Assembly (NCBI GenBank): GCA_019307745.1
Contig: JAFDJA010000006.1
Location: 701 to 64,700, forward strand
DNA length: 64,000 nt
Direction: 5' to 3'
Source: Deltaproteobacteria bacterium
GTDB lineage: Bacteria > Desulfobacterota > DSM-4660 > Desulfatiglandales > HGW-15
Of this stretch, positions 4,830 through 47,787 are shown piece after piece (position 1 is the first letter of the stretch; the number at the start of each line of letters is the position of its first letter). Under the pieces are notes generated by a model, which was not told the DNA's origin, searched no databases, and worked only from the letters and a program-made list of their open reading frames with translations. The position numbers and the translations under genes are program-made.

Positions 4830-5824
4830 TTAGTTTTGAAATTTTCACCGGGTTTGGGTCTCCATTTGGCGAGCTCGTGGGTAGTCACGCCTGGTTTGAG
4901 TAATTCTTGAAACCTGGCATGCATCTCAACCGCGGTCTGGTAGATCTCTTTCTGTAGATCTGATGGCTTTGCACCTACCAAAAAGGTCCGGTCATAACAA
5001 ACCTTGTACCCACACCAGTTGACGTGGCAGGCCTCGAGAGTAAGAAACTCACGGGGTCTTAGGATTCGATCCGACCAGTTAAAACTACGGGGGTTGGTTC
5101 TGTCACCTGAGTTGACTACCCAGCCTTCTATATATTCACCTCCTGCATCATAGATGGCCTTGGCCATAATTCCTTGAATTTCATGCTCTTTCATGCCTAC
5201 CCTTGCCTCTCGATATACGGCGCCATAACCCGCTTCGTTTATCGCGGCGGCTGTTTTCATACAGATAATCTCTTCATCAAATTTTACCATGCCACATTCA
5301 TCGATCCACGCATTCCCATCAACGACTGTTATACCCTCTTCACGTAAGGCATCGATAAGGTATGGGCTGCAAGTATCAATGGATAAGGGCAGTTCAGAGA
5401 CTCCATGCTTCTTAAGCAGTTTTTTAATCTGCTTTGCGGTGATAGACCATTGCTTATTGGCAACTTCCGGTGTCTTATAACGGCCGGGACGGGGTTGTAG
5501 TAGGTGATCATGATTCAACATGCGCCCCTCCAACCAGGGACAGTCTTCCTTCACTCTTTTTTCATCAATCTCCATCGCTTCCACATAGGGGAAACCAGCA
5601 TCTCTAATCATAAGAACAAAATTCCAGGCCAGGCCTCTGCTGTAAGGGTGGTTCCATAGACTTGATAAATACCTTTTACGATCATGGTTGTATACAATAG
5701 CCGATCCAATGCCATATTTAGCCATAAACTGGTTGGCCCTTTCAATTCGTTTCTCCCTCAACGCTTCCCAGTTTATTCTCTGCTGCCAGTCCACATTCCC
5801 CAACCCGAATCTTTGTGATATCAT
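4784..5824 (-). CDS. M24 family peptidase / creatinase-like protein, apparently 3'-truncated by a frameshift
   Basis: Start chosen at MISQRF (ATG 5822-5824), preceded by AAGGAG. It has a creatinase-type N-domain and the first part of a pita-bread domain. The ORF stops before the C-terminal M24 signature, which is encoded out of frame downstream (next feature). Confidence 0.7.
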   Translation of the reverse strand: MISQRFGLGNVDWQQRINWEALREKRIERANQFMAKYGIGSAIVYNHDRKRYLSSLWNHPYSRGLAWNFVLMIRDAGFPYVEAMEIDEKRVKEDCPWLEGRMLNHDHLLQPRPGRYKTPEVANKQWSITAKQIKKLLKKHGVSELPLSIDTCSPYLIDALREEGITVVDGNAWIDECGMVKFDEEIICMKTAAAINEAGYGAVYREARVGMKEHEIQGIMAKAIYDAGGEYIEGWVVNSGDRTNPRSFNWSDRILRPREFLTLEACHVNWCGYKVCYDRTFLVGAKPSDLQKEIYQTAVEMHARFQELLKPGVTTHELAKWRPKPGENFKTKEQIQKWRASWSNHL

Positions 5825-7157: not shown

Positions 7158-8915
7158 TCAACCTCCTTCTACCACCATTGTCTGCCTGGCTACGAGAAAC
7201 GTAAGTGCCATCGTTACCATCACCAGGGGCACTGCAATGGCAGAGGCAATACGAAACTCTGCCTCCTCCATCCATAAAAACCAAAGGATCACGCCCAAGG
7301 TCTGGTTACCCACAGCATAGAGCATCAACGCGATCGACGTATCGCGAATGCTCCGTACAAACATCCAAAGAAAACCACGAACAAAGCTGGGCCACAAGAG
7401 CGGCAACACGACCCGGGAGAAGGTATGCCATAGTTTTGCCCCGCTTGTACCGGCGGCCTCTTCAAGTTCCCGGTGAATCTGTATAAAGGCCGCACCCATC
7501 TGCCTCGTTCCAAAGGGCAGACAGGTAGTTGTCACAGCAATGACAATGATCCAGATGGTTCCGTAGATGGGAATAGGCAAAACAGTATAGATGAAAATGA
7601 GTGCCAGTGCCAGCACGATTCCTGGAACTCCTACCACCATAAAGGCAAGACGGTCCGGGATCCAGGCGCCACGAACTTCTCCGCGAATAGAAAGCCATGA
7701 AACCAGGGTCACAAGAAACATCCCGATCATAGCCGCGGAAATAGCAATTATTATGGTATTGTTGAGTGCTATCCACAACTGTGGAGAATTCATCATTTCA
7801 CGGTAGGCATTCAGGTTGACTCGAGACAGCGCTGAGAACGAGATTGCTGTAAAGGCTGGGGCAATACTCGTCCAAAAAAGAATCAGAAATGGCATTGCCA
7901 CAGCAAGAACAAAGTACCCGGTCATAATAACCACCGGCACAAACTTCCACCGTCCCAGGTCGATCAGGTGCGGGCGGTACCCGCGACCTGTTACTGTAGC
8001 GAAGCGCTCCCCATGCTTAATATAACGGCTATACAGGTAAACAAACACTCCCGCAACCGCCAACAGAATCACCCCGTAAGTGCTTGCCATCCCATAGTTA
8101 GGCAAAAGCTCCCCATGTGCCGGGTTAATAGCATAGTAGATCGCGCTGCTAAATACGTATATGCCTTTCGGCATACCCAACAAGGCCGGGATCTCAAAGA
8201 TCTCCATAGCGCGAACGAAGTAGTATATGACCGCGGCAAAGACTGCCGGGCTGACCAGGGGCATACTAACCTGCCGGAAGGTAGCCCATATTCCGGCACC
8301 GCTCGTCCGAGCCGCTTCTTCGAGGGAAGGATCTACCCTGGAAAATACGCCTGAAATCATAATGTAGATCATGGGAACGAAGCCAAGCGCGGCAATCAGA
8401 ATCATGCCGGGAATGGAGTAGATATTGATCGGCCCAGGCCCCGTGAGCCCGAAGAGCTCCCGCAGTATCACGTTGAACAGACCGTTGGCAGGATTAGCCA
8501 GCAGAATCCAGCCCATACCCACTATGATTACAGGCATACCCATCGGCGACAGAATCAGCACGAAAAGGAGACGTCGGAATGGGACATTGGTCCGTTCAAG
8601 GAACCAGGCAAATATTATGGAAAGTCCCATGGCAACAATAATAGTACCTGAGGCAAACCACGCCGTGTTGAGGAGCATACGGTAAGTGGCGCCTGAAGTA
8701 AATACCTGAAGATAGTTGGCAACAGTGAAGGTAGTAACCTCGAACGGCAAGCGATTTGCAGTACTGCGGATACTGCTGAACAGTAGAATAGCTATCGGAG
8801 GGAGCACTAAACAAATGACTACAATAGATACTGCCCCTAAGAGTATCTTTTGTGAATGTAAAGCAACAAGTTCGCGCAGACTCACCATCCTCTCTGAAAA
8901 CCCAGCTAAGTTCAA
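7158..8915 (-). CDS. ABC transporter permease, duplicated (two-module) iron(III)/thiamine-type
   Basis: 585-aa ORF with about 12 TM segments and two EAA-like loops (LEEAARTSGAG, LEEAAGTSGAK). TTG start preceded by AAGGAGG at 7-nt spacing. Confidence 0.85.
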   Translation of the reverse strand: MNLAGFSERMVSLRELVALHSQKILLGAVSIVVICLVLPPIAILLFSSIRSTANRLPFEVTTFTVANYLQVFTSGATYRMLLNTAWFASGTIIVAMGLSIIFAWFLERTNVPFRRLLFVLILSPMGMPVIIVGMGWILLANPANGLFNVILRELFGLTGPGPINIYSIPGMILIAALGFVPMIYIMISGVFSRVDPSLEEAARTSGAGIWATFRQVSMPLVSPAVFAAVIYYFVRAMEIFEIPALLGMPKGIYVFSSAIYYAINPAHGELLPNYGMASTYGVILLAVAGVFVYLYSRYIKHGERFATVTGRGYRPHLIDLGRWKFVPVVIMTGYFVLAVAMPFLILFWTSIAPAFTAISFSALSRVNLNAYREMMNSPQLWIALNNTIIIAISAAMIGMFLVTLVSWLSIRGEVRGAWIPDRLAFMVVGVPGIVLALALIFIYTVLPIPIYGTIWIIVIAVTTTCLPFGTRQMGAAFIQIHRELEEAAGTSGAKLWHTFSRVVLPLLWPSFVRGFLWMFVRSIRDTSIALMLYAVGNQTLGVILWFLWMEEAEFRIASAIAVPLVMVTMALTFLVARQTMVVEGG

Positions 8916-15870: not shown

Positions 15871-17332
15871 TGCTTTTCCCACTGCCAACTGGCAGTCTAA
15901 CTGTAAAAGTAGTGCCCTTTTCGGTTGAACTCTCAACGTGGATTGTTCCCTTGTGCTGTTTGATGAGGCCTAATGTGATGGACATCCCCAAACCGGTTCC
16001 AACCTCTTTTGTAGTAAAAAAGGGATCAAAGATCTTGTCCAGATGCTCCCTTGGAATGCCTTTTCCGTTGTCGGATACAACAACCTCCACATAACTGTCC
16101 GCGCTGCTGAATCTGGTTTCAAAAATAACTTCACCCCCGGGTTCGATCGCATCAATGGCATTCAGGCCCAGATTGACAAGTGACTGCTGAATCTGGGCCT
16201 TATCCACTCTAGCAATGGGGATACCAGCTTCAAACTTGCTCTCTAAAGTAACATCTTTGAATGCAGCCTGTTTCCTTAAGAGTACAATACTATCCTGGAC
16301 GATATCATTGATATCGTGCTCATCGATTACCGGCCTGCTCTGACGGGCAAAATTAAGCAGACTTGAAATTATTTTACGGCATCTGATGGCTTCATCGGCA
16401 ATTGTTTTCAACTCCAGATAATCAGGGTCATCCTGGCCGAGATCTTCCTGCATTAACATTGCTGTGGTCAAAATTGTAGTCAGGGGATTATTGATTTCAT
16501 GGGCCACCCCGGCGGCAAGGCGGCCGACCGAAATCATTTTTTGCTGGCGCAACATCTCCTTATGGAGATGAATATCCTTTGTAACATCCCTTAGTATCTC
16601 TATTACCGATTTAATTTCTCCATCTTTAAAGATCGGATAGGTGGAAATTGCATGGTAGATCTCCTGGTTATCCTTACCCCTATGGACATGAGTCGATTTG
16701 GAAGGCTTTCCTGAAAGCAGGGTATCCTTTAACGGACATAATTCCTCCTCTCCATCACAGGGAGTCCTCCGTTGATGGGAAATCTCGTAACAGTGGCGGC
16801 CGATAATCTCCTCCCTATCATATGGCAATTTCTTCAGAAAAGTATCGTTGACTTCCAGGATTCGATAATCCGGTGCGATTACCATAACATCTTCCTGGAT
16901 CAGATTGTTGACTGCAGTATCATACATTGCCCTATTCTCAGCAGATTCCCTTGCCCTCCGCCGCATTTCAATCCTTTCATGAACCCTTCTAAAGGCTGTC
17001 TCAAGGACTTCATAACTAATAGGCTTTAAAAGAAAATCAGTTGCTCCGTCTTTCAGGCTTCTAATGGCAAAATCAACATTTCCATGGGCTGTAATAATAA
17101 TCACTTCCGTATCAGGGCTTTGAGACTTAATCCTGCGGAGCAATTCTATTCCGTTCATAACGGGCATCCTGATATCGGTAATAACAACCGGAGGGTTGAC
17201 CTCCTTAAATACTGCCAAAGCCTCTTCACCATTTTGTGCAGTGTAAACATGATAGCCCAGTCTATCCAGTGAATTACTAATATCCTTACGGATATTCTCA
17301 TTATTATCCACAAGCAAGATCTTCTCTTTCAT
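15863..17332 (-). CDS. Hybrid-type sensor histidine kinase (N-terminal REC - PAS - HisKA - HATPase_c)
   Basis: REC (ILLVDNN...DIRMPVMNG), PAS segment, H-box AAGVAHEINNPL, N box and G boxes (DNGKGI, GTGLGMS). Confidence 0.9.
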   Translation of the reverse strand: MKEKILLVDNNENIRKDISNSLDRLGYHVYTAQNGEEALAVFKEVNPPVVITDIRMPVMNGIELLRRIKSQSPDTEVIIITAHGNVDFAIRSLKDGATDFLLKPISYEVLETAFRRVHERIEMRRRARESAENRAMYDTAVNNLIQEDVMVIAPDYRILEVNDTFLKKLPYDREEIIGRHCYEISHQRRTPCDGEEELCPLKDTLLSGKPSKSTHVHRGKDNQEIYHAISTYPIFKDGEIKSVIEILRDVTKDIHLHKEMLRQQKMISVGRLAAGVAHEINNPLTTILTTAMLMQEDLGQDDPDYLELKTIADEAIRCRKIISSLLNFARQSRPVIDEHDINDIVQDSIVLLRKQAAFKDVTLESKFEAGIPIARVDKAQIQQSLVNLGLNAIDAIEPGGEVIFETRFSSADSYVEVVVSDNGKGIPREHLDKIFDPFFTTKEVGTGLGMSITLGLIKQHKGTIHVESSTEKGTTFTVRLPVGSGKSNE

Positions 17333-38731: not shown

Positions 38732-39895
38732 TTAAGGATTGACCTCTTCCTTAACCGAAATAACAATCTTATAAAGAATTGTGATCACCAACGCACCTAT
38801 TGCCCAGACACCAACAGAGATGCCTATCTCAATTGAAGTGGGCATATATTCTGTTATCGCTTCAAAGGGATTAGGAATAAAGCCACCCAGGACAAGACCA
38901 AAGCCCTTGTCTATCCAAGTGCTGATTATTACTGCCCCACAGGCAATCATAAGACCTGTTTCATTATTCCTGAATGACGGTACAATCAGCAGAACAAGAG
39001 AAAGGGCTCCGAAAACGGTTGCCGTCCACATCCAGGGCACCAGGGCATTATATCCATGCAGTCCGGAGAACAGGTAAACCAGCGAGTGCATATGGCCTGG
39101 AATTTGTGAATAAAAGGCGGTAAAGCACTCAAGGCCAAAACAGAACACGTTCAGAATCATTGCATAGGCAACGATTTTACCCAATGTATTTATCTGTTCT
39201 TTGCCCGGATCAAATCTGCTCACCTTCCTTATTATCAAACACAGGAGGATAAGGATTGCCGGGCCTGACGCAAATGCCGATGTCAAAAAACGTACAGCCA
39301 TAACCGCGGTGAGCCAATAGTGTCTTCCTGGTATGCCCGCGTAAAGAAAGGCTGTTACCGTATGTATGCTGAATGCCCATGGTATAGAAATATAGGTCAG
39401 GACCTTAACCCATTTGGGATAGGGAACTCCTTTTCTTTCCGCGGTAAGCACATTCCATCCTATAAGGAGGTTAAATATAAGATAAGTATTGAGGACAATC
39501 ATGTCCCAAAACAGGATGGATTTGAGATTCGGATAAATCATTATATTCATCATGCGAGGAAGGTTGCCCAGATCCACCATTACAAACAGGCCGCATATGA
39601 TAATAGCTCCCACCGCAAGAAATTCACCAAGGATGGTAATCCTGGAAAAGGCCTTGTAATCATGCAAATAGCACGGAAGCACAACCATAACACCTCCGGC
39701 GGCAACACCTACAAAGTATGTGAGCTGACCGATATAAAAGCCCCAGGAGACATCCCTGCCCATCCCTGTAACCATAAGACCATCTACAAACTGTACTGAA
39801 TAACACGCAGCTCCAACTGCCGTGCAGAGAATCAGGAATCCTATCCATCCCCAATATGACTGACTTCCTTTTATCGCCTTATCAAGCATAATCAC
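38732..39895 (-). CDS. dsrP: DsrP, NrfD/PsrC-family integral membrane quinone-interacting subunit
   Basis: ~10-TM ORF, last in the dsrMKJOP order. The track start is GTG at 39895; an alternative ATG at 39889 is preceded by GAGGTGA. Confidence 0.85.
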   Translation of the reverse strand: MIMLDKAIKGSQSYWGWIGFLILCTAVGAACYSVQFVDGLMVTGMGRDVSWGFYIGQLTYFVGVAAGGVMVVLPCYLHDYKAFSRITILGEFLAVGAIIICGLFVMVDLGNLPRMMNIMIYPNLKSILFWDMIVLNTYLIFNLLIGWNVLTAERKGVPYPKWVKVLTYISIPWAFSIHTVTAFLYAGIPGRHYWLTAVMAVRFLTSAFASGPAILILLCLIIRKVSRFDPGKEQINTLGKIVAYAMILNVFCFGLECFTAFYSQIPGHMHSLVYLFSGLHGYNALVPWMWTATVFGALSLVLLIVPSFRNNETGLMIACGAVIISTWIDKGFGLVLGGFIPNPFEAITEYMPTSIEIGISVGVWAIGALVITILYKIVISVKEEVNP

Positions 39896-39896
39896 C

Positions 39897-40700
39897 TCAT
39901 ACTATATAGTAGATATTGGGCGCTGTCCCAAGTTCAGGTTTACGTCTGATCACATAATTTTCGCGAAGAAGATCTCTTACCTCAGAGTGCGGATCAACCA
40001 GGTCTCCAAATGTCAGCGCGCCCCCGGCCAGTTCATTTGCCGCTTCCACACACGCGGGGAACTCACCCCTGGCAAGCCTCTCTGCACAAAAATTACATTT
40101 CTCTACCACTCCCTTCATCCTGGTGGGATAGTCCGGGTTAGTGGGGAAATGGGGATTGAGCTTTTGGGGGGCCTTTCTAGGGTCGCCCCAATTAAAACTC
40201 CTGGCACCGAAAGGACATGCTGCCATGCAAAATCTGCAGCCGATGCACCTGTGAGGATCCATCATAACAACACCATCCTCTTCTCTCTTCCATGTGGCCT
40301 TTGTCGGGCATACCCTGACACAGGCCGGATTATCACAGTGGTTGCAGAGGAGAAGAAAATTTTTCTCTTCAAATTCCTCATCAAAATAGTCGTGCTCCTG
40401 ACCGGGAAAGGAGTGCCCGAATGTATCCTTCCATACCCATTTTATCTCTATCCTGGGATTTCCCCAATCAGGCACATTATGGATTCGGTGGCACGCGGAC
40501 TGACAGGCGTCCAAAACCTTACCGGTCATCTTTGCTGTATCAACAACCATACCGTATTTATTTCCTTTGACCAGGGGAAGCTTTTCTATTGAGGCCTCAG
40601 CCTCTCCCGGGGCGAACAGACCAAACGCTGCTTTTCCTCCCAGTGTCATTGCAGCGGAGAGCCCGGCTACCTTAAGAAAGTCTCTTCTCTTCATAGGCAT
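39897..40700 (-). CDS. dsrO: DsrO, periplasmic 4Fe-4S ferredoxin-like subunit with Tat signal
   Basis: RRDFLKVAGLSAA twin-arginine signal. Several CxxCxxCxxxCP-type clusters (CNHCDNPACVRVCP, CIGCRFCMAACP). Confidence 0.85.
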   Translation of the reverse strand: MPMKRRDFLKVAGLSAAMTLGGKAAFGLFAPGEAEASIEKLPLVKGNKYGMVVDTAKMTGKVLDACQSACHRIHNVPDWGNPRIEIKWVWKDTFGHSFPGQEHDYFDEEFEEKNFLLLCNHCDNPACVRVCPTKATWKREEDGVVMMDPHRCIGCRFCMAACPFGARSFNWGDPRKAPQKLNPHFPTNPDYPTRMKGVVEKCNFCAERLARGEFPACVEAANELAGGALTFGDLVDPHSEVRDLLRENYVIRRKPELGTAPNIYYIV

Positions 40701-41101
40701 TATTTATACTCCTTAGGCTCAATATGGCAGTCCCAACAAATGGGCGTCACTCCCATATAGTTGTGACACCTGTCACAGAAATCAACCTTATTGTAATGAC
40801 AATCCATACATGTTGTCTGAAGACTCTTGTAATGTTCCTTGCCATTGCTGCTTGTGTAATATCTCTCTCCATCCCGGACCACCTCGTTCCGCCACTGGTC
40901 CAACAGTTTCATATGCTGGGTCTTCATAAACTCTTTTGTCTCAATACAGACGCCGGCTTTTTTGGCGGTTTCTGTGAGCAAAGGTTCCGGAACTACTGAG
41001 CCCTCTCCCACAACGATTGTCTGATACAAGACCGGGAAAAACGCCAGCACAACAAAGATAATAAGCCCGGTTATAATTTTTCCGCTATCATACATCCGCA
41101 T
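40700..41101 (-). CDS. dsrJ: DsrJ, triheme periplasmic cytochrome c
   Basis: N-terminal anchor helix plus three CxxCH sites (CMDCH, CDRCH, CWDCH) in 133 aa. Confidence 0.85.
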   Translation of the reverse strand: MRMYDSGKIITGLIIFVVLAFFPVLYQTIVVGEGSVVPEPLLTETAKKAGVCIETKEFMKTQHMKLLDQWRNEVVRDGERYYTSSNGKEHYKSLQTTCMDCHYNKVDFCDRCHNYMGVTPICWDCHIEPKEYK

Positions 41102-42731
41102 CCTCCTCTAACTCTTCCTCTTCCATTCCGGGGAGAGTTTCACTACGCAGATCAGTTGTTCTCTTCTGTTCTCCTTCAAGAATCAGGGCATTTGCCACCA
41201 GCTCGTGAAGGCCTGTGACCTCTACTTCAGGCACCCAGTACCCCATAAGGTCACTAAGGGCTGCCCTGTCAATGGCACAAATCGTGGCCAGCATGTTCAC
41301 GTCATATTTTTCATGCACATACTTTACCGCGTTTGCCCTGGGCATTCCGCCCCTCATCCTGAGCTCCATATCTTCTCCAGCATTAAGGCCTGACCCACTT
41401 CCGCAGCAGAAGGTCTTTTCCCTGATGGTATCTTCAGGCATCTCATAAAAGTTATTGCACACACTCTTAAGCACATATCTGGGCTCATCCAGCAGTCCCA
41501 TACCTCGCGCGGGATTGCAGGAGTCATGAAAGGTGACTTTAAGGTGGTCGTTCCTGCTCGGATCAAGATTCAGTTTGTTGTTTTTGATCAGGTCCGCTGT
41601 AAACTCCGCGATGTGAACCATCTTTGTGGATTTGGCATTTTCAAATCTTGTGCCGGTTATGGATGACACCGGGGCCTCCAGAAAATCTGCAGGGCCATTG
41701 AATGTATCCATATACTGATGAATCACCCTCCACATGTGTCCACACTCACCTCCCAGTATCCACTTGACGCCAAGACGTTTAGCCTCCGCGTACATCTTGG
41801 AGTTGAGTCTCTTGGCCATCTCATGGGATGTAAAGGAGCCGAAATTTCCGCCCTCTGACGCGTATGTAGACCATGTGATATCAAGACCCATGCCCTTCAA
41901 GTAATGAAAAAGCATAAGATAGCCCATGCATGTATATGTCCCCGGATCAGCGAAGACATCGCCTGAAGGTGTAATAAAAAGGATCTCCGCGCCCTTTCTG
42001 TTCAGGTCAGGCTCTACCTTGATTCCAGTGATATCTTCAATATCGTCGACAAAGAAGTCGATCATATCTTTGAATGCGTGGGGCTGGATTCCCAGATGAT
42101 TTCCCGTGCGATAGCAATTTGCCACAGGAGCGGCGATCCAGTTTATGTTCAGACCGATCAGATTCAGAAGCTCCCTGCCAATATAAGTGATCTCGGCAGT
42201 ATCGATACCATATGGGCAGAACACAGAACATCGTCGGCACATGGTGCACTGGAAAAAGTAAGACCACCACTCTTTAAGTACATCCAGGGTCATCTCTCTA
42301 GCCCCGGCAAACCTGCCCATGATCTTTCCAGCCAGCTTATACTCCTTTCTGTAGACAGACCGGAGAAGCTCTGCCCTGAGAACCGGCATGTTTTTAGGAT
42401 CACCACCGCCAATAAAGAAGTGGCACTTGTCCGAGCAGGCGCCGCATCTTACACATATATCCATGAATATTTTGAGCGATCTGAATCTATCTATGCGCTC
42501 TCTGAGCCCATTAAGGATGATCTCCTGCCAATTTTCAGGCAGCTTCCAGTCCTCTTCCAGAGGATCCCAGTCTCTGGCATTTGGCATGCCGACATACGCG
42601 AGCTCTTTTTCCTTGGCGCCATAGCAGGCAATTCCTGGTTTGATCTCAACAGGACTGTCCATCCAGCCACCGGTAAGAGGAGGGCTGTGATCAATCTGTA
42701 CCAGTTCTTCTGGCTTGGGAACATCTGACAT
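41088..42731 (-). CDS. dsrK: DsrK, HdrD-like catalytic Fe-S subunit (CCG domain)
   Basis: CVRCGACSDKC and CTMCRRCSVFCP ferredoxin motifs. C-terminal CCG motif (FCCGSGSG). 547 aa. Confidence 0.9.
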   Translation of the reverse strand: MSDVPKPEELVQIDHSPPLTGGWMDSPVEIKPGIACYGAKEKELAYVGMPNARDWDPLEEDWKLPENWQEIILNGLRERIDRFRSLKIFMDICVRCGACSDKCHFFIGGGDPKNMPVLRAELLRSVYRKEYKLAGKIMGRFAGAREMTLDVLKEWWSYFFQCTMCRRCSVFCPYGIDTAEITYIGRELLNLIGLNINWIAAPVANCYRTGNHLGIQPHAFKDMIDFFVDDIEDITGIKVEPDLNRKGAEILFITPSGDVFADPGTYTCMGYLMLFHYLKGMGLDITWSTYASEGGNFGSFTSHEMAKRLNSKMYAEAKRLGVKWILGGECGHMWRVIHQYMDTFNGPADFLEAPVSSITGTRFENAKSTKMVHIAEFTADLIKNNKLNLDPSRNDHLKVTFHDSCNPARGMGLLDEPRYVLKSVCNNFYEMPEDTIREKTFCCGSGSGLNAGEDMELRMRGGMPRANAVKYVHEKYDVNMLATICAIDRAALSDLMGYWVPEVEVTGLHELVANALILEGEQKRTTDLRSETLPGMEEEELEEDADV

Positions 42732-42733
42732 AT

Positions 42734-43843
42734 CTACTCCTTTTCTGTTTCTTCTTGTGACCCGGCTTCTTCAGCTTCAGGCATCTTTTCCACGGGCAAT
42801 CCCACTTCTACCATCTTCTCCCTGAATTCTTCCTCATACTCATCATAGGTGTGGACCTTGACATGATAGTCCCATGGATTGACATGCCTGACAGCCCTGT
42901 TGTTGTTAGCTAAGACCCTTGTGGGACTCAGGAAGATCCCTCCCATGTGCATGAGCTTGCTGAACGGGAAATAGACAATTAGTGAACATATCAAAAACAG
43001 ATGGATAAAAAATAAAACACCAATCCCGTCAGGCACGGTCGGGCTAAAAGAGACAAGACCCATTGCCAGCTCTTTTACAGCAACCACCTGAACAGTAAAG
43101 ACATCTATGTTAAAAAGAAATTGTGTGAAAGCTCCCGCATAACGCATCATGATACCGGTCCCAGCGATCCCTAATATAAGGAAAAGGGGGAAATAGTCCG
43201 CGGGAAGGGATATGTAACGTACCTGTGAGAGATACAGCCTTCTCAGCAGGAGGTATGCAACCGCAGCCACAAGCACCAGACCTGAGATCTGAACACCCGG
43301 AAGCGTAAAGCCGGGGAATGGCGCAATACCTATCTCGATAAAGCCATCAATCACCTCAACCATATGGATACACCAAGGTATTGGATCAAAAAAGAACCTC
43401 AGGTGCCTTAGTACAACGCACAGGAATGAATAGTGAAAGGCCAGGGCAGCAATCCACAGCCACTTTTCCCATTCATAGGTTACCTTATCACCCTTTCTGT
43501 ACTCAAGAGAGGTGTTCCTGAATAGCGACCGGAAAAGAAGTACCTCAAAAATCATCCGCCCTATTACACCAAGTGTGTTTGAAGGGTTGTCCATTTTGTT
43601 TTGTTTGATCCACGGAAGGGATTTCTGCTGGCCAGCTGTGGTAGGAATGCGGAAGGGATTAGGAGACATCGACCAGTTAATGACACGGTAAACAAACCCT
43701 GCGACAAACACAAACACGGCAAAGTATGGTATGTACACACCGAAAATCCACTGAAGATCCAACACTCCGACCCCAATCCATGGAATCAGGGTGAGAACAG
43801 TAACCATGACCAGGGAAAACAGGATGCTGATAATAAAATTCAT
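42734..43843 (-). CDS. dsrM: DsrM, NarI-like diheme cytochrome b membrane subunit
   Basis: Polytopic membrane protein, first in the dsrMKJOP order, with an acidic cytoplasmic C-terminal extension. Confidence 0.85.
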   Translation of the reverse strand: MNFIISILFSLVMVTVLTLIPWIGVGVLDLQWIFGVYIPYFAVFVFVAGFVYRVINWSMSPNPFRIPTTAGQQKSLPWIKQNKMDNPSNTLGVIGRMIFEVLLFRSLFRNTSLEYRKGDKVTYEWEKWLWIAALAFHYSFLCVVLRHLRFFFDPIPWCIHMVEVIDGFIEIGIAPFPGFTLPGVQISGLVLVAAVAYLLLRRLYLSQVRYISLPADYFPLFLILGIAGTGIMMRYAGAFTQFLFNIDVFTVQVVAVKELAMGLVSFSPTVPDGIGVLFFIHLFLICSLIVYFPFSKLMHMGGIFLSPTRVLANNNRAVRHVNPWDYHVKVHTYDEYEEEFREKMVEVGLPVEKMPEAEEAGSQEETEKE

Positions 43844-43957
43844 TTGCTACCTCGTTTCATTATAAAATCACTTGATGATGAATTGAGAAATCCAATCCCA
43901 AACCAGCAGTCCTTGTTTATTGCCGTATGGGACTCTACAAACTTTATAATACAGTTG

Positions 43958-44506
43958 TCACTCCGGCTGATCCGGTCTGACTTCATCCCATTCAGGGACT
44001 TCACTTATAAGACCACTCTTCTTAAGAAGCTGAGACACTTCCCTTTTAATCATATCCGCCTTGATCTCGTATATCTTCTCCCTGCACTTCATATGGATAT
44101 CAAAGGCGATGAGCATAAGGTCATCTATCCTGGTCTCAAATTCTAAAAGTTCTCCTGAAAGGCTGTTTACCCTGATCTCCTCTTTCAACTCTCCTCGAAT
44201 CGCCTTTTTCAACAGGAACACAAAGGAGACCGATTCAGAGGCTGAAAAATCCTGGATAGACCTGATCCTGATTATATTATCAAGGATGGGGGTGACCATT
44301 TCAGGCGATAGCTCTTTTTCATCTACGACCAACTGAAAAAGCCTCTCTGTAGTAGCCGCGAGCTCATATCCGACCGGATTGGCGAATTGATCTTTCCGTC
44401 TTGTAAGAAACCTCCTGGTATCGGCATGGTAGGAGTTAACAATAGCTTCCAGCCATCTTTCCAGTATATCGGATTTTTTTTGTGACAGTAATTCTGAAAG
44501 CTTCAT
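43958..44506 (-). CDS. RsbRD N-terminal-domain-like protein (putative regulator/accessory protein upstream of dsrM)
   Basis: 182-aa soluble helical ORF. The N-terminus KKSDILERWLEAIVNSYHADTRRFL...DQFANPVG resembles the RsbRD_N family. It is on the same strand, 115 nt upstream of dsrM. Confidence 0.5.
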   Translation of the reverse strand: MKLSELLSQKKSDILERWLEAIVNSYHADTRRFLTRRKDQFANPVGYELAATTERLFQLVVDEKELSPEMVTPILDNIIRIRSIQDFSASESVSFVFLLKKAIRGELKEEIRVNSLSGELLEFETRIDDLMLIAFDIHMKCREKIYEIKADMIKREVSQLLKKSGLISEVPEWDEVRPDQPE

Positions 44507-45591: not shown

Positions 45592-45661
45592 TTCCGGTAG
45601 CTCAGTTGGTAGAGTCCCGCTAAAGCGGGATTAACCACTTGCTAATCGGTTGTAAATATGA
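45592..45661 (+). pseudogene. Degenerate tRNA-Asn paralogue (pseudo-tRNA)
   Basis: CCGGTAGCTCAGTTGGTAGAG (acceptor 3' part + D-arm) is identical to the adjacent tRNA-Asn. The anticodon-stem 5' half is replaced by a TCCCGC-taaa-GCGGGA hairpin. TTAACCAC-TTG-C is retained, and the T-arm and acceptor 3' strand are decayed. Confidence 0.55.
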
Positions 45662-45737
45662 TCCCCGGTAGCTCAGTTGGTAGAGCAGGTGGCTGTTAAC
45701 CACCTTGTCGGCAGTTCAAGTCTGTCCCGGGGAGCCA
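45662..45737 (+). tRNA. tRNA-Asn (anticodon GTT), CCA encoded
   Basis: Hand-folded cloverleaf: acceptor TCCCCGG/CCGGGGA, D-arm GCTC-AGTTGGTA-GAGC, anticodon arm GGTGG-CTGTTAA-CCACC, T-arm GGCAG-TTCAAGT-CTGTC, discriminator G, then CCA. Confidence 0.95.
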
Positions 45738-45746
45738 AACAATAAT

Positions 45747-45779
45747 AAGGCTCAACCTATTTAAGGTTGGGCCTTTTTT
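45747..45779 (+). repeat. 33-bp direct repeat, left copy (also the tRNA terminator hairpin)
   Basis: AAGGCTCAACCTATTTAAGGTTGGGCCTTTTTT is identical to 47755-47787. It forms the hairpin GGCTCAACC/GGTTGGGCC followed by T6. Confidence 0.95.
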
Positions 45780-46182
45780 ATGTTATCAAAGGTGTTTATG
45801 TCTTTCGGCTGCGATCTAGCTCTTCTGTAACCTACCATACTTCTTTAATAGGCAACTTACCTGTTTTTCTTTTTTCTTGTAAAATAGGTTAATTTATAGT
45901 TAACATACTTCGCTAAAGACATATCAATTAACAAACATTCAGTCATATCCTTACAGTGTAATTACTGGTTTATAACTAGACTATGTATTTATAACCCCCC
46001 GTGTTACTGAAACGGGGGTATTATCCCAATCTTGTTACATCTTAATAACGATTTTTATTCGGTTTATATCTTCGCCTGGATGCCATTAAAATAGACCACC
46101 TTGGTAAACAATCTAAATCATGAGGTTGGAAAACAAAAAACATTTATTCTTATACTGCACGCAGGCTAATATGCTAATTTTA

Positions 46183-46211
46183 TTGAAAGCAAGAATGCAT
46201 CATAATATTAA
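46183..46211 (+). promoter_or_regulatory. Sigma-70-type promoter candidate for the islet operon
   Basis: TTGAAA-N17-TATTAA lies ~40 nt upstream of the ATG at 46253. Confidence 0.35.
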
Positions 46212-46252
46212 TGTTGGGCAGTAAAACAAGAAAAAGAGGAAAGGATAGAACC

Positions 46253-46786
46253 ATGACAGAGAAAAAACAAACACTTGGGCAAGCAATTGATCAAATAATC
46301 GAAGCGCTAGATTCTTTGGCGCCTGATGCGCGACAGACAGCAATCGACGCTGCATGCTCCCATTTGGGGATTGCAAAAAGCACATCTGTTGCTCCTCCTC
46401 AAGTCGTTCCACAGCCTACCGCCGCCTTAATCAGGACTCCATCACTTCATGAGACCCCTCCTGCGCATTCACCCAAAGTGATGGACATCAGAACATTCAA
46501 GGAGAGCAAGGGGCCAAAATCAGCAAAACAGATGGCTTGTGTAGTGGCCTATTACCTTGCTGAACTTGCACTAGAGGGAGAGAAGCGTGCGACTGTTACC
46601 TCGAAAGTACTTGAGAAGTATTTTAAGCAGGGGAAATTCAAACTTCCCAAGACAATAGGACAACTACTTCCTGATGCAAAGGCTTCTGGATATTTCGAAG
46701 CAGCGCCGGGCAAGGGTGAGTATGCACTGAATGCTGTGGGTTACAACTTGGTTGCTCATAACCTCCCTACAAAAAAGGGCAAATAA
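46253..46786 (+). CDS. Hypothetical protein, helical N-domain + Pro-rich linker + wHTH-like C-domain
   Basis: Start chosen at MTEKKQTLGQ (GAGGAAAGGA upstream). The C-terminal segment is KQMACVVAYYLAEL...VTSKVLEKYFKQ...GEYALNAVGYNLV. No family recognised. Confidence 0.55.
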   Translation: MTEKKQTLGQAIDQIIEALDSLAPDARQTAIDAACSHLGIAKSTSVAPPQVVPQPTAALIRTPSLHETPPAHSPKVMDIRTFKESKGPKSAKQMACVVAYYLAELALEGEKRATVTSKVLEKYFKQGKFKLPKTIGQLLPDAKASGYFEAAPGKGEYALNAVGYNLVAHNLPTKKGK

Positions 46787-47593
46787 ATGCCGGGCGTTAT
46801 TCCTGATTTCGTATTGAGACTTGAGCAGGCAAGAAAAGATCTGAACCAGATCACTTCACTTCAACTCAACTCTCAAAAACGTAGAGATTCTCTCCGATCA
46901 CTGGTCGAGGAGTATTTCAATAGTATTAGAACAAATCTTCTTGGGGCATCAGAGCAAGACGAAGACATCGGTAACGTCGACACTCTAATGCAAGATCTTC
47001 TGGTTCTATGTCATAAGCGTGGCGGCGTCAAAACCTATCAATCACTCCTATCAAAGATACGTAAGAGCCTTATCATTCTTGACGCTCGGATTGTTACGTC
47101 AACTAGTTCAGGTATCGATCCTCAGGCACTTGATTCTGTAGACACTATGATTATTGAGACCCTGAGCCAGGTTGTTCCATTTGCAGCCCTATCATATCAG
47201 CAGGCTCTCACCGATCTCGAAGCCTATCAGCGTCTCTCTTGGAGAGGACCTGCCACGGACCTCCGCGAAGCATTACGCGAAACATTGGATCATCTAGCTC
47301 CCGATAAAGAAGTTGAGGCAATGTCCGGTTATAAGAAACTGCCTGATACAAATGGCCCCACAATGAAGCAAAAGGTCCGTTACGTATTGAGGAATAGGGA
47401 TGTATCTAAAGCTCTCAGAGCCCCTGCGGAGGCAGCCACTGAGACTATTGATTCCACGGTAGGGACATTTGTTCGCTCTGTGTATACGAGATCGAGTGTT
47501 TCTACACACACACCAACTGAAAAGGAAGAGGTCACTCGCATTCGAGATTTTGTTCGAGTGGTGCTGTGTGAACTCCTTGAGATTCGCACATGA
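46787..47593 (+). CDS. Hypothetical helical protein with C-terminal R-x5-H (HEPN-like) motif
   Basis: 268 aa. The ATG directly abuts the upstream TAA. RSSVSTH sits ~30 residues from the C-terminus and is followed by one more predicted helix (EEVTRIRDFVRVVLCELLEI). Confidence 0.55.
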   Translation: MPGVIPDFVLRLEQARKDLNQITSLQLNSQKRRDSLRSLVEEYFNSIRTNLLGASEQDEDIGNVDTLMQDLLVLCHKRGGVKTYQSLLSKIRKSLIILDARIVTSTSSGIDPQALDSVDTMIIETLSQVVPFAALSYQQALTDLEAYQRLSWRGPATDLREALRETLDHLAPDKEVEAMSGYKKLPDTNGPTMKQKVRYVLRNRDVSKALRAPAEAATETIDSTVGTFVRSVYTRSSVSTHTPTEKEEVTRIRDFVRVVLCELLEIRT

Positions 47594-47754
47594 GGAGTGA
47601 AAAGGCCCAACAATCAAATGGAGGGTATTTCAAAATAGCTACGCTTTTTTGAAAACCCTCATTTGAGACGTTATATTTTCAAGCGGTTATTACTATATTT
47701 CTAACCTTTCCTCACAATGCCCATATTGTTCCGGTTGGGTGAGCCAGACTTTAC

Positions 47755-47787
47755 AAGGCTCAACCTATTTAAGGTTGGGCCTTTTTT
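47755..47787 (+). repeat. 33-bp direct repeat, right copy, preceded by a decayed tRNA 3' end
   Basis: Identical to 45747-45779. The upstream GGGTGAGCCAGAC resembles the tRNA-Asn 3' end GGGGAGCCAAAC. Confidence 0.95.

Follow-up and report, generated by a model that had tools for sequence, protein, structure and literature searches.

A repeat-bounded islet beside a deltaproteobacterial tRNA-Asn gene carries a widely shared two-gene cassette, a candidate defence or toxin-antitoxin module

The locus described here lies in a stretch of 64,000 nucleotides from a member of the Deltaproteobacteria (GenBank assembly GCA_019307745.1, contig JAFDJA010000006.1, positions 701 to 64,700), which is referred to as the window and whose own numbering is used for the coordinates. 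The single tRNA gene of the window, a tRNA-Asn(GTT) called by ARAGORN and by Rfam (RF00005, 65.2 bits), is followed by a terminator hairpin, an AT-rich leader, two open reading frames (ORFs) called ORF1 and ORF2, and a second copy of the same hairpin (Table 1). An earlier note, made from the letters alone, had described this arrangement as a tRNA-Asn-linked islet bounded by a perfect 33-bp direct repeat, the first copy of which is the terminator after the tRNA, with weaker homology continuing on both sides of the repeat, a relic of the tRNA 3' end at the far border, two abutting ORFs of 177 and 268 aa with a TAA-ATG junction as the cargo, and no integrase. The anatomy is borne out on all of these points by ARAGORN and by repeat and terminator scans, the absence of an integrase holding among the ten flanking ORFs that were scanned. 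The interest of the locus lies in this cargo and not in the islet, since one partner of the pair is without a family model and the other bears only the label of a "predicted pPIWI-associating nuclease".

Table 1. Positions of the features of the islet and its borders, in window coordinates.
Feature	Position	Strand	Basis
Remains of the 5' part of a second tRNA-Asn, just upstream of the functional gene	45594..45655	+	21 nt identical to 45665-45685
tRNA-Asn(GTT), intact, CCA encoded; left islet boundary	45662..45737	+	ARAGORN, Rfam RF00005
Direct repeat copy 1, terminator hairpin of tRNA-Asn; candidate attL core	45747..45779	+	exact 33-mer, terminator scan
AT-rich non-coding leader, 473 nt, 32.6% GC	45780..46252	+	composition; no ORF >=50 aa; no Rfam match
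ORF1, 177 aa; two-helix N-domain, Pro/Ser-rich linker, C-terminal winged helix (predicted)	46253..46786	+	
ORF2, 268 aa; variable four-helix N-domain, C-terminal pP_pnuc_1 domain (~117-268)	46787..47593	+	PF18165
Hairpin in the cassette's own 3' untranslated region, kept in the 92.7%-identical cassette of locus L035	47614..47667	+	sequence, RNAfold
Remnant of the tRNA-Asn acceptor 3' end (GGTGAGCCAGAC) and spacer, collinear with copy 1	47737..47754	+	BLAST 52 nt 88%; local alignment 10/12
Direct repeat copy 2, terminator hairpin now closing the ORF1-ORF2 operon; candidate attR core	47755..47787	+	exact 33-mer, terminator scan

The repeat is the 33-mer AAGGCTCAACCTATTTAAGGTTGGGCCTTTTTT, which has exactly two copies in the window; 100 shuffles that kept the dinucleotide composition produced none, even when three mismatches were tolerated. 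Each copy is recognised as an intrinsic terminator and has a 12-pair stem and a run of T. Extension by BLAST takes the repeat to 52 nt at 88% identity (45729-45779 versus 47737-47787), whereby it enters the last bases of the tRNA, and on the left flank GGGGAGCCAAAC is matched by GGTGAGCCAGAC at 10 of 12 positions (shuffle p = 0.16), with the right flank at a shuffle p of 0.045. As each flank is equally far from the core in both copies, chance is less likely than these p-values suggest. There is therefore an intact tRNA at one border and a direct repeat with a degenerate tRNA 3' end at the other, the perfect core covering the terminator and the tRNA relic being preserved only in degenerate form. 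With islets formed by tyrosine integrases the locus shares the intact tRNA at one end, the tRNA 3' relic in the repeat and a foreign-looking cargo; unlike them, it has its perfect core in the terminator downstream of the tRNA and not inside it, and no integrase is found. A perfect 33-bp core with arms of about 70% identity points to attL and attR sites, or to a Campbell-type single crossover, rather than to uniform decay, and it is from such features of the sequence that we infer the history of integration. Taken as such, the islet is what horizontal acquisition at a tRNA gene ordinarily leaves behind.

What, then, are the two proteins that the islet carries? The second of them, ORF2, had been regarded as unassignable, which does not hold, for it is a member of the Pfam family pP_pnuc_1 (PF18165), scoring 44.7 bits over residues 136-229 (E 1.3e-11) and thus lying above the curated gathering score of 26.3, and it also matches the PADLOC model Aga_Nuclease (3.6e-9, residues 153-246), which at 267 positions is of similar length. 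PF18165 is carried by all 120 close ORF2 homologues among the matches listed and it also matches 27 of 27 diverged relatives (30-51% identity), within a family of 753 clusters at 50% identity (E <= 0.001) whose members are nearly all of 260-280 aa. The AlphaFold2 (AF2) model of ORF2 is all-alpha, with a predicted local distance difference test score (pLDDT) of 81, and comprises a four-helix N-domain (residues 1-105) and a C-domain (residues 117-268). In some relatives (P0267, P0271 and P0278) the pP_pnuc_1 C-domain is joined to other N-terminal regions, and the C-domain would hence be the conserved functional unit. By eye, the N-terminus of P0271 is helix-turn-helix-like, and P0278 is a protein of 480 aa whose N-terminal region is without a Pfam match. 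The residues that are invariant in the alignment of diverged homologues include Y137, Q139, D143, S151, R153, G154, R160, E161, R164, T192, K196, R204, R230, Y233 and H241.

The family name implies an association with pPIWI proteins, whereas the constant partner here is a winged-helix protein without a family model. Neither PIWI nor Argonaute is detected beside the pair in about 40 loci, as judged from the 25 most frequent Pfam and PADLOC families listed for 125 neighbouring proteins, nor is PIWI seen among seven large neighbours or at the loci with Pfam annotation (L037, L038, L125, L126 and L128). A partnership of ORF2 with Argonaute or PIWI proteins is accordingly not supported, there being no such gene in any context examined. 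The searchable literature library holds no paper on pP_pnuc_1 under either its family name or its accession. The pP_pnuc_1 domain is all-alpha in the AF2 model, and it is by the family name that it is predicted to be a nuclease.

One further proposal concerning ORF2 was that it carries an R-x5-H motif (RSSVSTH) at the position where HEPN RNases have their catalytic residues. The histidine of this motif, H241, is indeed invariant, but the arginine, R235, varies and no HEPN profile matches: R235 is Q in one of 24 close homologues, and among diverged ones its place is taken by Q, K, V, Y or S, and the invariant arginine is instead R230, ten residues ahead of H241. When the HEPN families of Pfam are set against 27 members of the ORF2 family none matches at E <= 10, and only PF18165 recurs. 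With structure comparison by Foldseek nothing is found at E <= 0.001 in PDB or BFVD, all structural matches having E > 0.2, with Csm6 chains at E 0.66-2.6 amid G-protein-coupled receptors, crystallins and other helical bundles; the motif loop itself (residues 230-242) has a pLDDT below 50 in the AF2 model, and a sequence-profile search of PDB with ORF2 gives no matches. What ORF2 shares with HEPN RNases such as Csm6, the HEPN-MNT toxins and the Abi proteins is an all-alpha domain of about 150 aa and the weak Csm6 matches, together with an invariant histidine in a loop before the last helix and conserved arginines close by, while it differs from them in the unconserved arginine of its R-x5-H, in the spacing of R230 from H241 and in the lack of a HEPN Pfam match. 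As a family assignment, the HEPN RNase is therefore rejected on account of the varying motif arginine, the missing HEPN profile match and the absence of a significant fold match. The invariant histidine and the several arginines would be compatible with a metal-independent phosphodiester chemistry.

The upstream partner, ORF1, has 333 homologues, and its alignment reveals about 40 conserved N-terminal residues that form two helices, then a linker rich in Pro and Ser that varies, and a C-domain that is again conserved. It has no match in Pfam, PADLOC or PHROGs, and its match in NCBIfam is at chance level (E 0.0088, 15.8 bits against a cut-off of 274 bits). The AF2 model, with a pLDDT around 90 over residues 81-170, gives the C-domain an H-b-H-H-b-b topology by DSSP, made up of helices at 91-105, 117-126 and 135-144, a two-residue strand at about 114-115 that precedes the second helix, and strands at 148-150 and 157-159. 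The top Foldseek matches of this domain are TubR, MarR, FixK2, the winged helix of MUS81 and FOXN, with probabilities of at most 0.98 and E > 0.1. On the model, the C-domain is predicted to be a winged helix, so that the winged-helix-like C-domain that had been described for ORF1 is backed by both the topology and the Foldseek matches, the short helical N-domain and Pro-rich linker being seen in the alignment.

That the two genes belong together is apparent from their distribution. In a scan that took one genome per species and yielded 34 loci with the pair, every one of the species-representative genomes, 34 of 34 and from more than 10 phyla, has an ORF1 homologue directly ahead of the ORF2 homologue, as would be expected of the co-inheritance on which the earlier proposal of a functional pair depended. 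The hosts include Desulfobacterales, Sedimentisphaerales, Pirellulales, Dojkabacteria, Omnitrophota, Nitrospira, Actinomycetes, Acidobacteriota, Gemmatimonadaceae, Melioribacter and Gamma-, Beta- and Alphaproteobacteria. The neighbourhoods are otherwise unrelated, the 125 flanking proteins falling into 103 Pfam families, and no recurrent third partner is found among the most frequent families listed for these neighbours.

The same comparison bears upon mobility. Loci show identity at the DNA level only within the cassette: in L035, the closest relative, an identity of 92.7% holds only for window positions 46212-47672 and a radical-SAM gene comes after the cassette, and L031, L032 and L033 have only about 1.2 kb of DNA in common. 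Judged from these alignments, the cassette evidently spreads horizontally. Linkage to a tRNA gene is rejected as a general property of the cassette, since none of the 34 loci has a tRNA within about 1.5 kb of the pair. In L038 a tRNA-Asn(GTT) is located at 16221-16296, 7.4 kb from the pair and with housekeeping genes between, and its resemblance to the tRNA-Asn linkage in the window is probably a coincidence. Flanking repeats are likewise rejected as a general property, for they are confined to the window and to L010, the other loci scanned showing chance-level 14-15-mers. In L010, from Luteimonas soli, a 259-bp, 93%-identical duplicate of the 3' end of nrdJ (5095-5353 and 8273-8531) brackets the pair together with other cargo. 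This comprises REP-like repeats, a 123-aa ORF and a RAYT-like transposase gene, an identification read from the translation; nrdJ is the gene for class II ribonucleotide reductase. In Luteimonas sp. R10 (L011) the pair is at the same place, with no second nrdJ copy seen within 6 kb. Among further side observations, L023, L024 and L025 hold the same segment of 4.3-6.2 kb, comprising the pair and flanking genes, at 99.6-99.9% identity in metagenome-assembled genomes assigned to Nitrospira, Steroidobacteraceae and Methyloceanibacter, which may reflect either a recent transfer of the element or contigs in the wrong bins. IS1595 and rve transposases lie near the pair in L037, and an integrase is found 6 kb away in L128.

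A second recurrent feature is the embedding of the pair in type I restriction-modification (R-M) operons, which provides the defence-like contexts among relatives that the idea of a defence module would predict. The pair lies between hsdS and hsdM in at least eight loci, and the gene order hsdR, hsdS, ORF1, ORF2, hsdM is found in L005, L007, L008, L009, L038 with its sister contigs, L125, L126, L127 and L128; in L031 hsdM and hsdR are downstream of the pair, in L026 a type IIG-like methylase-nuclease adjoins it, and PADLOC recognises five HsdS subunits among the 125 neighbours. Such embedding is seen in relatives and not for the window copy. In L038 and L125 ORF1 and the end of hsdS have 8 nt in common, an overlap or near-abutment being typical of the embedded loci, and beside the embedded pair either GmrSD (L005, L125) or PhD/ParE (L038) is inserted. 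Relative to L038, the R-M genes around the pair in L005, L007 and L009 have 55-63% (HsdR) and 74-81% (HsdM) amino acid identity, a close relatedness across phyla. The R-M genes and the cassette appear to move together as one island. Only fragments of hsdR and hsdM are present in L008, and L126 and L128 each have a fragmented hsdR.

Genes that lie within clusters for type I R-M, BREX or DISARM often turn out to be defence systems, PrrC being given as the classic R-M-embedded case (bioRxiv 10.1101/2024.01.29.577857), and tested precedents for embedded defence are TgvAB (PMC11411939) and DarTG2 (PMC12255303). The pair is absent, under its Pfam name, from the supplementary tables of the first of these studies (bioRxiv 10.1101/2024.01.29.577857). 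With PrrC (the prr locus), TgvAB and DarTG2 the cassette shares its position inside the type I R-M operon, immediately behind hsdS and in the same orientation, and no sequence relationship to any of the three was found. PrrC is a single protein with an NTPase domain; the cassette, unlike PrrC, consists of two proteins, and most of its copies, including that of the window, are outside any R-M operon.

How are the islet and its cargo best understood together? The explanation that we consider probable is that of a horizontally acquired islet with a self-contained cassette, a candidate for a defence or toxin-antitoxin (TA)-like function. The segment 45780-47754 would have been inserted just 3' of tRNA-Asn, with duplication of the tRNA 3' end and the terminator, by a recombinase that would since have been lost from the locus. 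The pair may then represent a TA-like or abortive-infection-type defence module, in which ORF1, as regulator, antitoxin or sensor, would restrain ORF2 or sense nucleic acid on its behalf, and in which ORF2, probably a nuclease, would be the effector that attacks nucleic acid once triggered. The R-M-embedded copies would provide a co-transcribed second line of defence, and the window copy stands alone. The overall reading of the earlier note, an islet with a toxin- or defence-like gene pair, is on this basis reasonable, its statements on the proteins (an unassignable ORF2 and the R-x5-H motif) being those that need correcting.

A number of observations weigh against this explanation. With regard to the insertion, the flank homology beyond the 33-bp core is weak by itself, the scan of ten ORFs (150 aa or more) from 38.7 to 54.5 kb turned up no integrase, transposase or R-M gene, and no empty tRNA-Asn site was found in related genomes by four routes. 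An exact 33-mer scan of metagenomes gives no matches; 80 loci around DsrM-like homologues keep the synteny of RsbRD_N and DsrM and have no tRNA-Asn; and exact look-ups of the flank proteins return only the same strain, with the near-identical L044 and L129 carrying the islet. In the relative L130, whose flavin reductase is 80% identical, the order of flavin reductase and tRNA-Asn is kept and a different terminator follows the tRNA, the contig ending 164 nt past the tRNA. With regard to the spread of the cassette, 72,556 plasmids, 50,697 phage genomes and the IMG/VR contigs gave no match to it, an absence that fits a chromosomal defence gene but offers no transfer vehicle. With regard to function, "nuclease" is a family name only; neither the Foldseek searches of PDB and BFVD nor the PDB sequence-profile search found an ORF2 relative of solved structure or known activity; and PADLOC-DB v2.0.0 contains no system that matches the pair, ORF1 having no match in it and ORF2 only Aga_Nuclease. 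In most of the 34 loci, moreover, the pair is solo among housekeeping genes with no R-M neighbour detected, and where it is embedded ORF1 lacks an upstream operator region, so classical TA autoregulation is not a given.

A rather unlikely proposal is that the pair is a plain type II TA addiction module, with ORF1 as winged-helix antitoxin and autorepressor and ORF2 as toxin, which stabilises whatever DNA carries it, be this an R-M island or an islet, and has no dedicated anti-phage role. The abutting genes with their TAA-ATG junction, the DNA-binding fold predicted in the upstream partner, the strict co-inheritance combined with a patchy horizontal distribution, and the PhD/ParE pair that adjoins the cassette in L038 would all suit such a module; both proteins are, however, large for a type II TA pair, the overlap of ORF1 with the end of hsdS in embedded loci leaves no room for a promoter and operator of its own, and the cassette is missing from the very plasmids in which addiction modules are common. 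The proposal also overlaps with the explanation favoured above, as many TA systems act in defence. If instead the pair served type I R-M enzymes as an accessory or regulatory factor, acting for example on restriction, methylation or specificity, the recurrent position between hsdS and hsdM in at least eight loci and the coupling to the end of hsdS would be accounted for and the window copy would be an orphan, but we regard this as quite improbable given that most of the 34 loci are without a detectable R-M neighbour, that there is none among the ORFs scanned in the window, and that the conserved polar residues of ORF2 resemble a catalytic or ligand-binding site and not a scaffold.

Two other alternatives concern how the pair came to its present place. 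It is conceivable, if unlikely, that no integration took place at all and that the repeat is a duplicated or gene-converted terminator in an old tandem array of tRNA-Asn genes, the pair having arrived otherwise or being old at this site. The pseudo-tRNA upstream and the 3' relic downstream would then be array members that have decayed. A third, decayed tRNA-Asn fragment (45594-45655) that is older than the split from L130 shows that tRNA duplication has occurred at this locus before, both repeat copies look like working terminators, which selection could maintain, and the weak flank homology and missing integrase are of a piece with such a history. Against it, a core of 33 identical positions out of 33 beside arms of about 70% is unlike uniform decay, and selection on a hairpin would allow loop and compensatory changes; furthermore, the cargo is mobile elsewhere and has a GC content at third codon positions (GC3) below that of the upstream core genes, and Luteimonas soli presents the same pattern of intact 3' end, cargo and relic at a protein-coding gene. 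That same similarity, of two repeat-bounded insertions at gene 3' ends (tRNA-Asn here and nrdJ in L010) with no integrase inside, and the limitation of identity to the cassette across different flanks, could be taken to mean that the cassette is self-mobilising, through a new insertion machinery that targets gene 3' ends and leaves target duplications. This is highly improbable: the other 33 of the 34 loci scanned have no flanking repeat beyond the chance-level 14-15-mers, there are neither conserved terminal sequences nor a common 3' element, the two repeat-bounded units differ in length and content (L010 adds the RAYT-like gene and an ORF), and the cassette can be fully operon-embedded.

Returning to the acquired defence or TA-like cassette, a bolder form of this explanation can be offered as a tentative possibility. 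Here the pair would be a self-sufficient, undescribed anti-phage system, the effector of which would have a new all-alpha and probably metal-independent nuclease fold built around His241 and the arginine cluster, and the copies between hsdS and hsdM would act as a PrrC-like guard, triggered once anti-restriction factors of a phage have put the type I R-M enzyme out of action. In its more general form, the cassette is plausibly an undescribed candidate defence or TA module. Its significance lies in a strictly conserved partnership that extends over some 750 clusters at 50% identity and more than 10 phyla, and in the recurrent type I R-M embedding that makes it a concrete candidate for a new defence system. 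The pair is also a candidate for the first biochemical assignment of the pP_pnuc_1 domain, for which R153, R160, E161, R164, K196, R204, R230, Y233 and H241 of ORF2 are the candidates for mutagenesis.

With respect to the non-coding parts of the cassette, the leader is AT-rich, as had been described, and the candidate promoter TTGAAA-N17-TATTAA is present in it but fails the -10 rule of the promoter scan; 10 promoter-like sites are found compared with 5.3 +/- 2.5 expected, so that an enrichment is not clear. Neither a small RNA (Rfam) nor tandem repeats were found in the leader, and no integrase remnant was detected inside the islet, the leader being without an ORF of at least 50 aa. The homology of L035 to the window starts at 46212 and stops at 47672, and over the short comparable stretch, which is limited to the 46 nt that L035 has upstream, the leader is not common to this closest homologue. 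The possibility of an integron cassette is rejected, since the 110 nt after the ORF2 stop are without a common sequence or fold across loci and have no attC-like element. After the ORF2 stop, AAAAGGCCCAAC at 47600-47611 is fully complementary to the 3' arm of the hairpin in the 33-bp repeat and is also present in the L035 cassette, at about 1435-1446. Approximately 0.4 such 12-mers would be expected in 3.5 kb; the stretch could be an alternative pairing partner of the repeat hairpin, or a chance match. On the same predicted transcript, positions 47699-47713 are complementary at 14 of 15 positions to the ribosome-binding region of ORF1 (46236-46250, GAGGAAAGGATAGAA), which is near chance level.

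At the left border, the decayed tRNA-Asn fragment contains the 21 nt that are identical to the 5' end of the tRNA, after which come a TCCCGC..GCGGGA hairpin and then TTAACCAC; it is not called as a tRNA by ARAGORN or Rfam. A more decayed version of it precedes tRNA-Asn in L130, from which it follows that this element predates the split between the two. The surroundings of the islet are core metabolism, with a purple-acid-phosphatase-like protein and a hemerythrin/PAS protein downstream and, upstream, a dsrMKJOP-like operon, an RsbRD_N protein and a flavin reductase. GC3 is 0.40 in the pair and 0.50-0.55 in the upstream core genes. The dsrMKJOP-like operon (38732-44506) encodes a membrane complex with NrfD-like, 4Fe-4S, CCG-domain and NarI-like subunits and is preceded by the RsbRD_N gene, a pairing of RsbRD_N with DsrM that is kept in most of the 80 metagenomic relatives.

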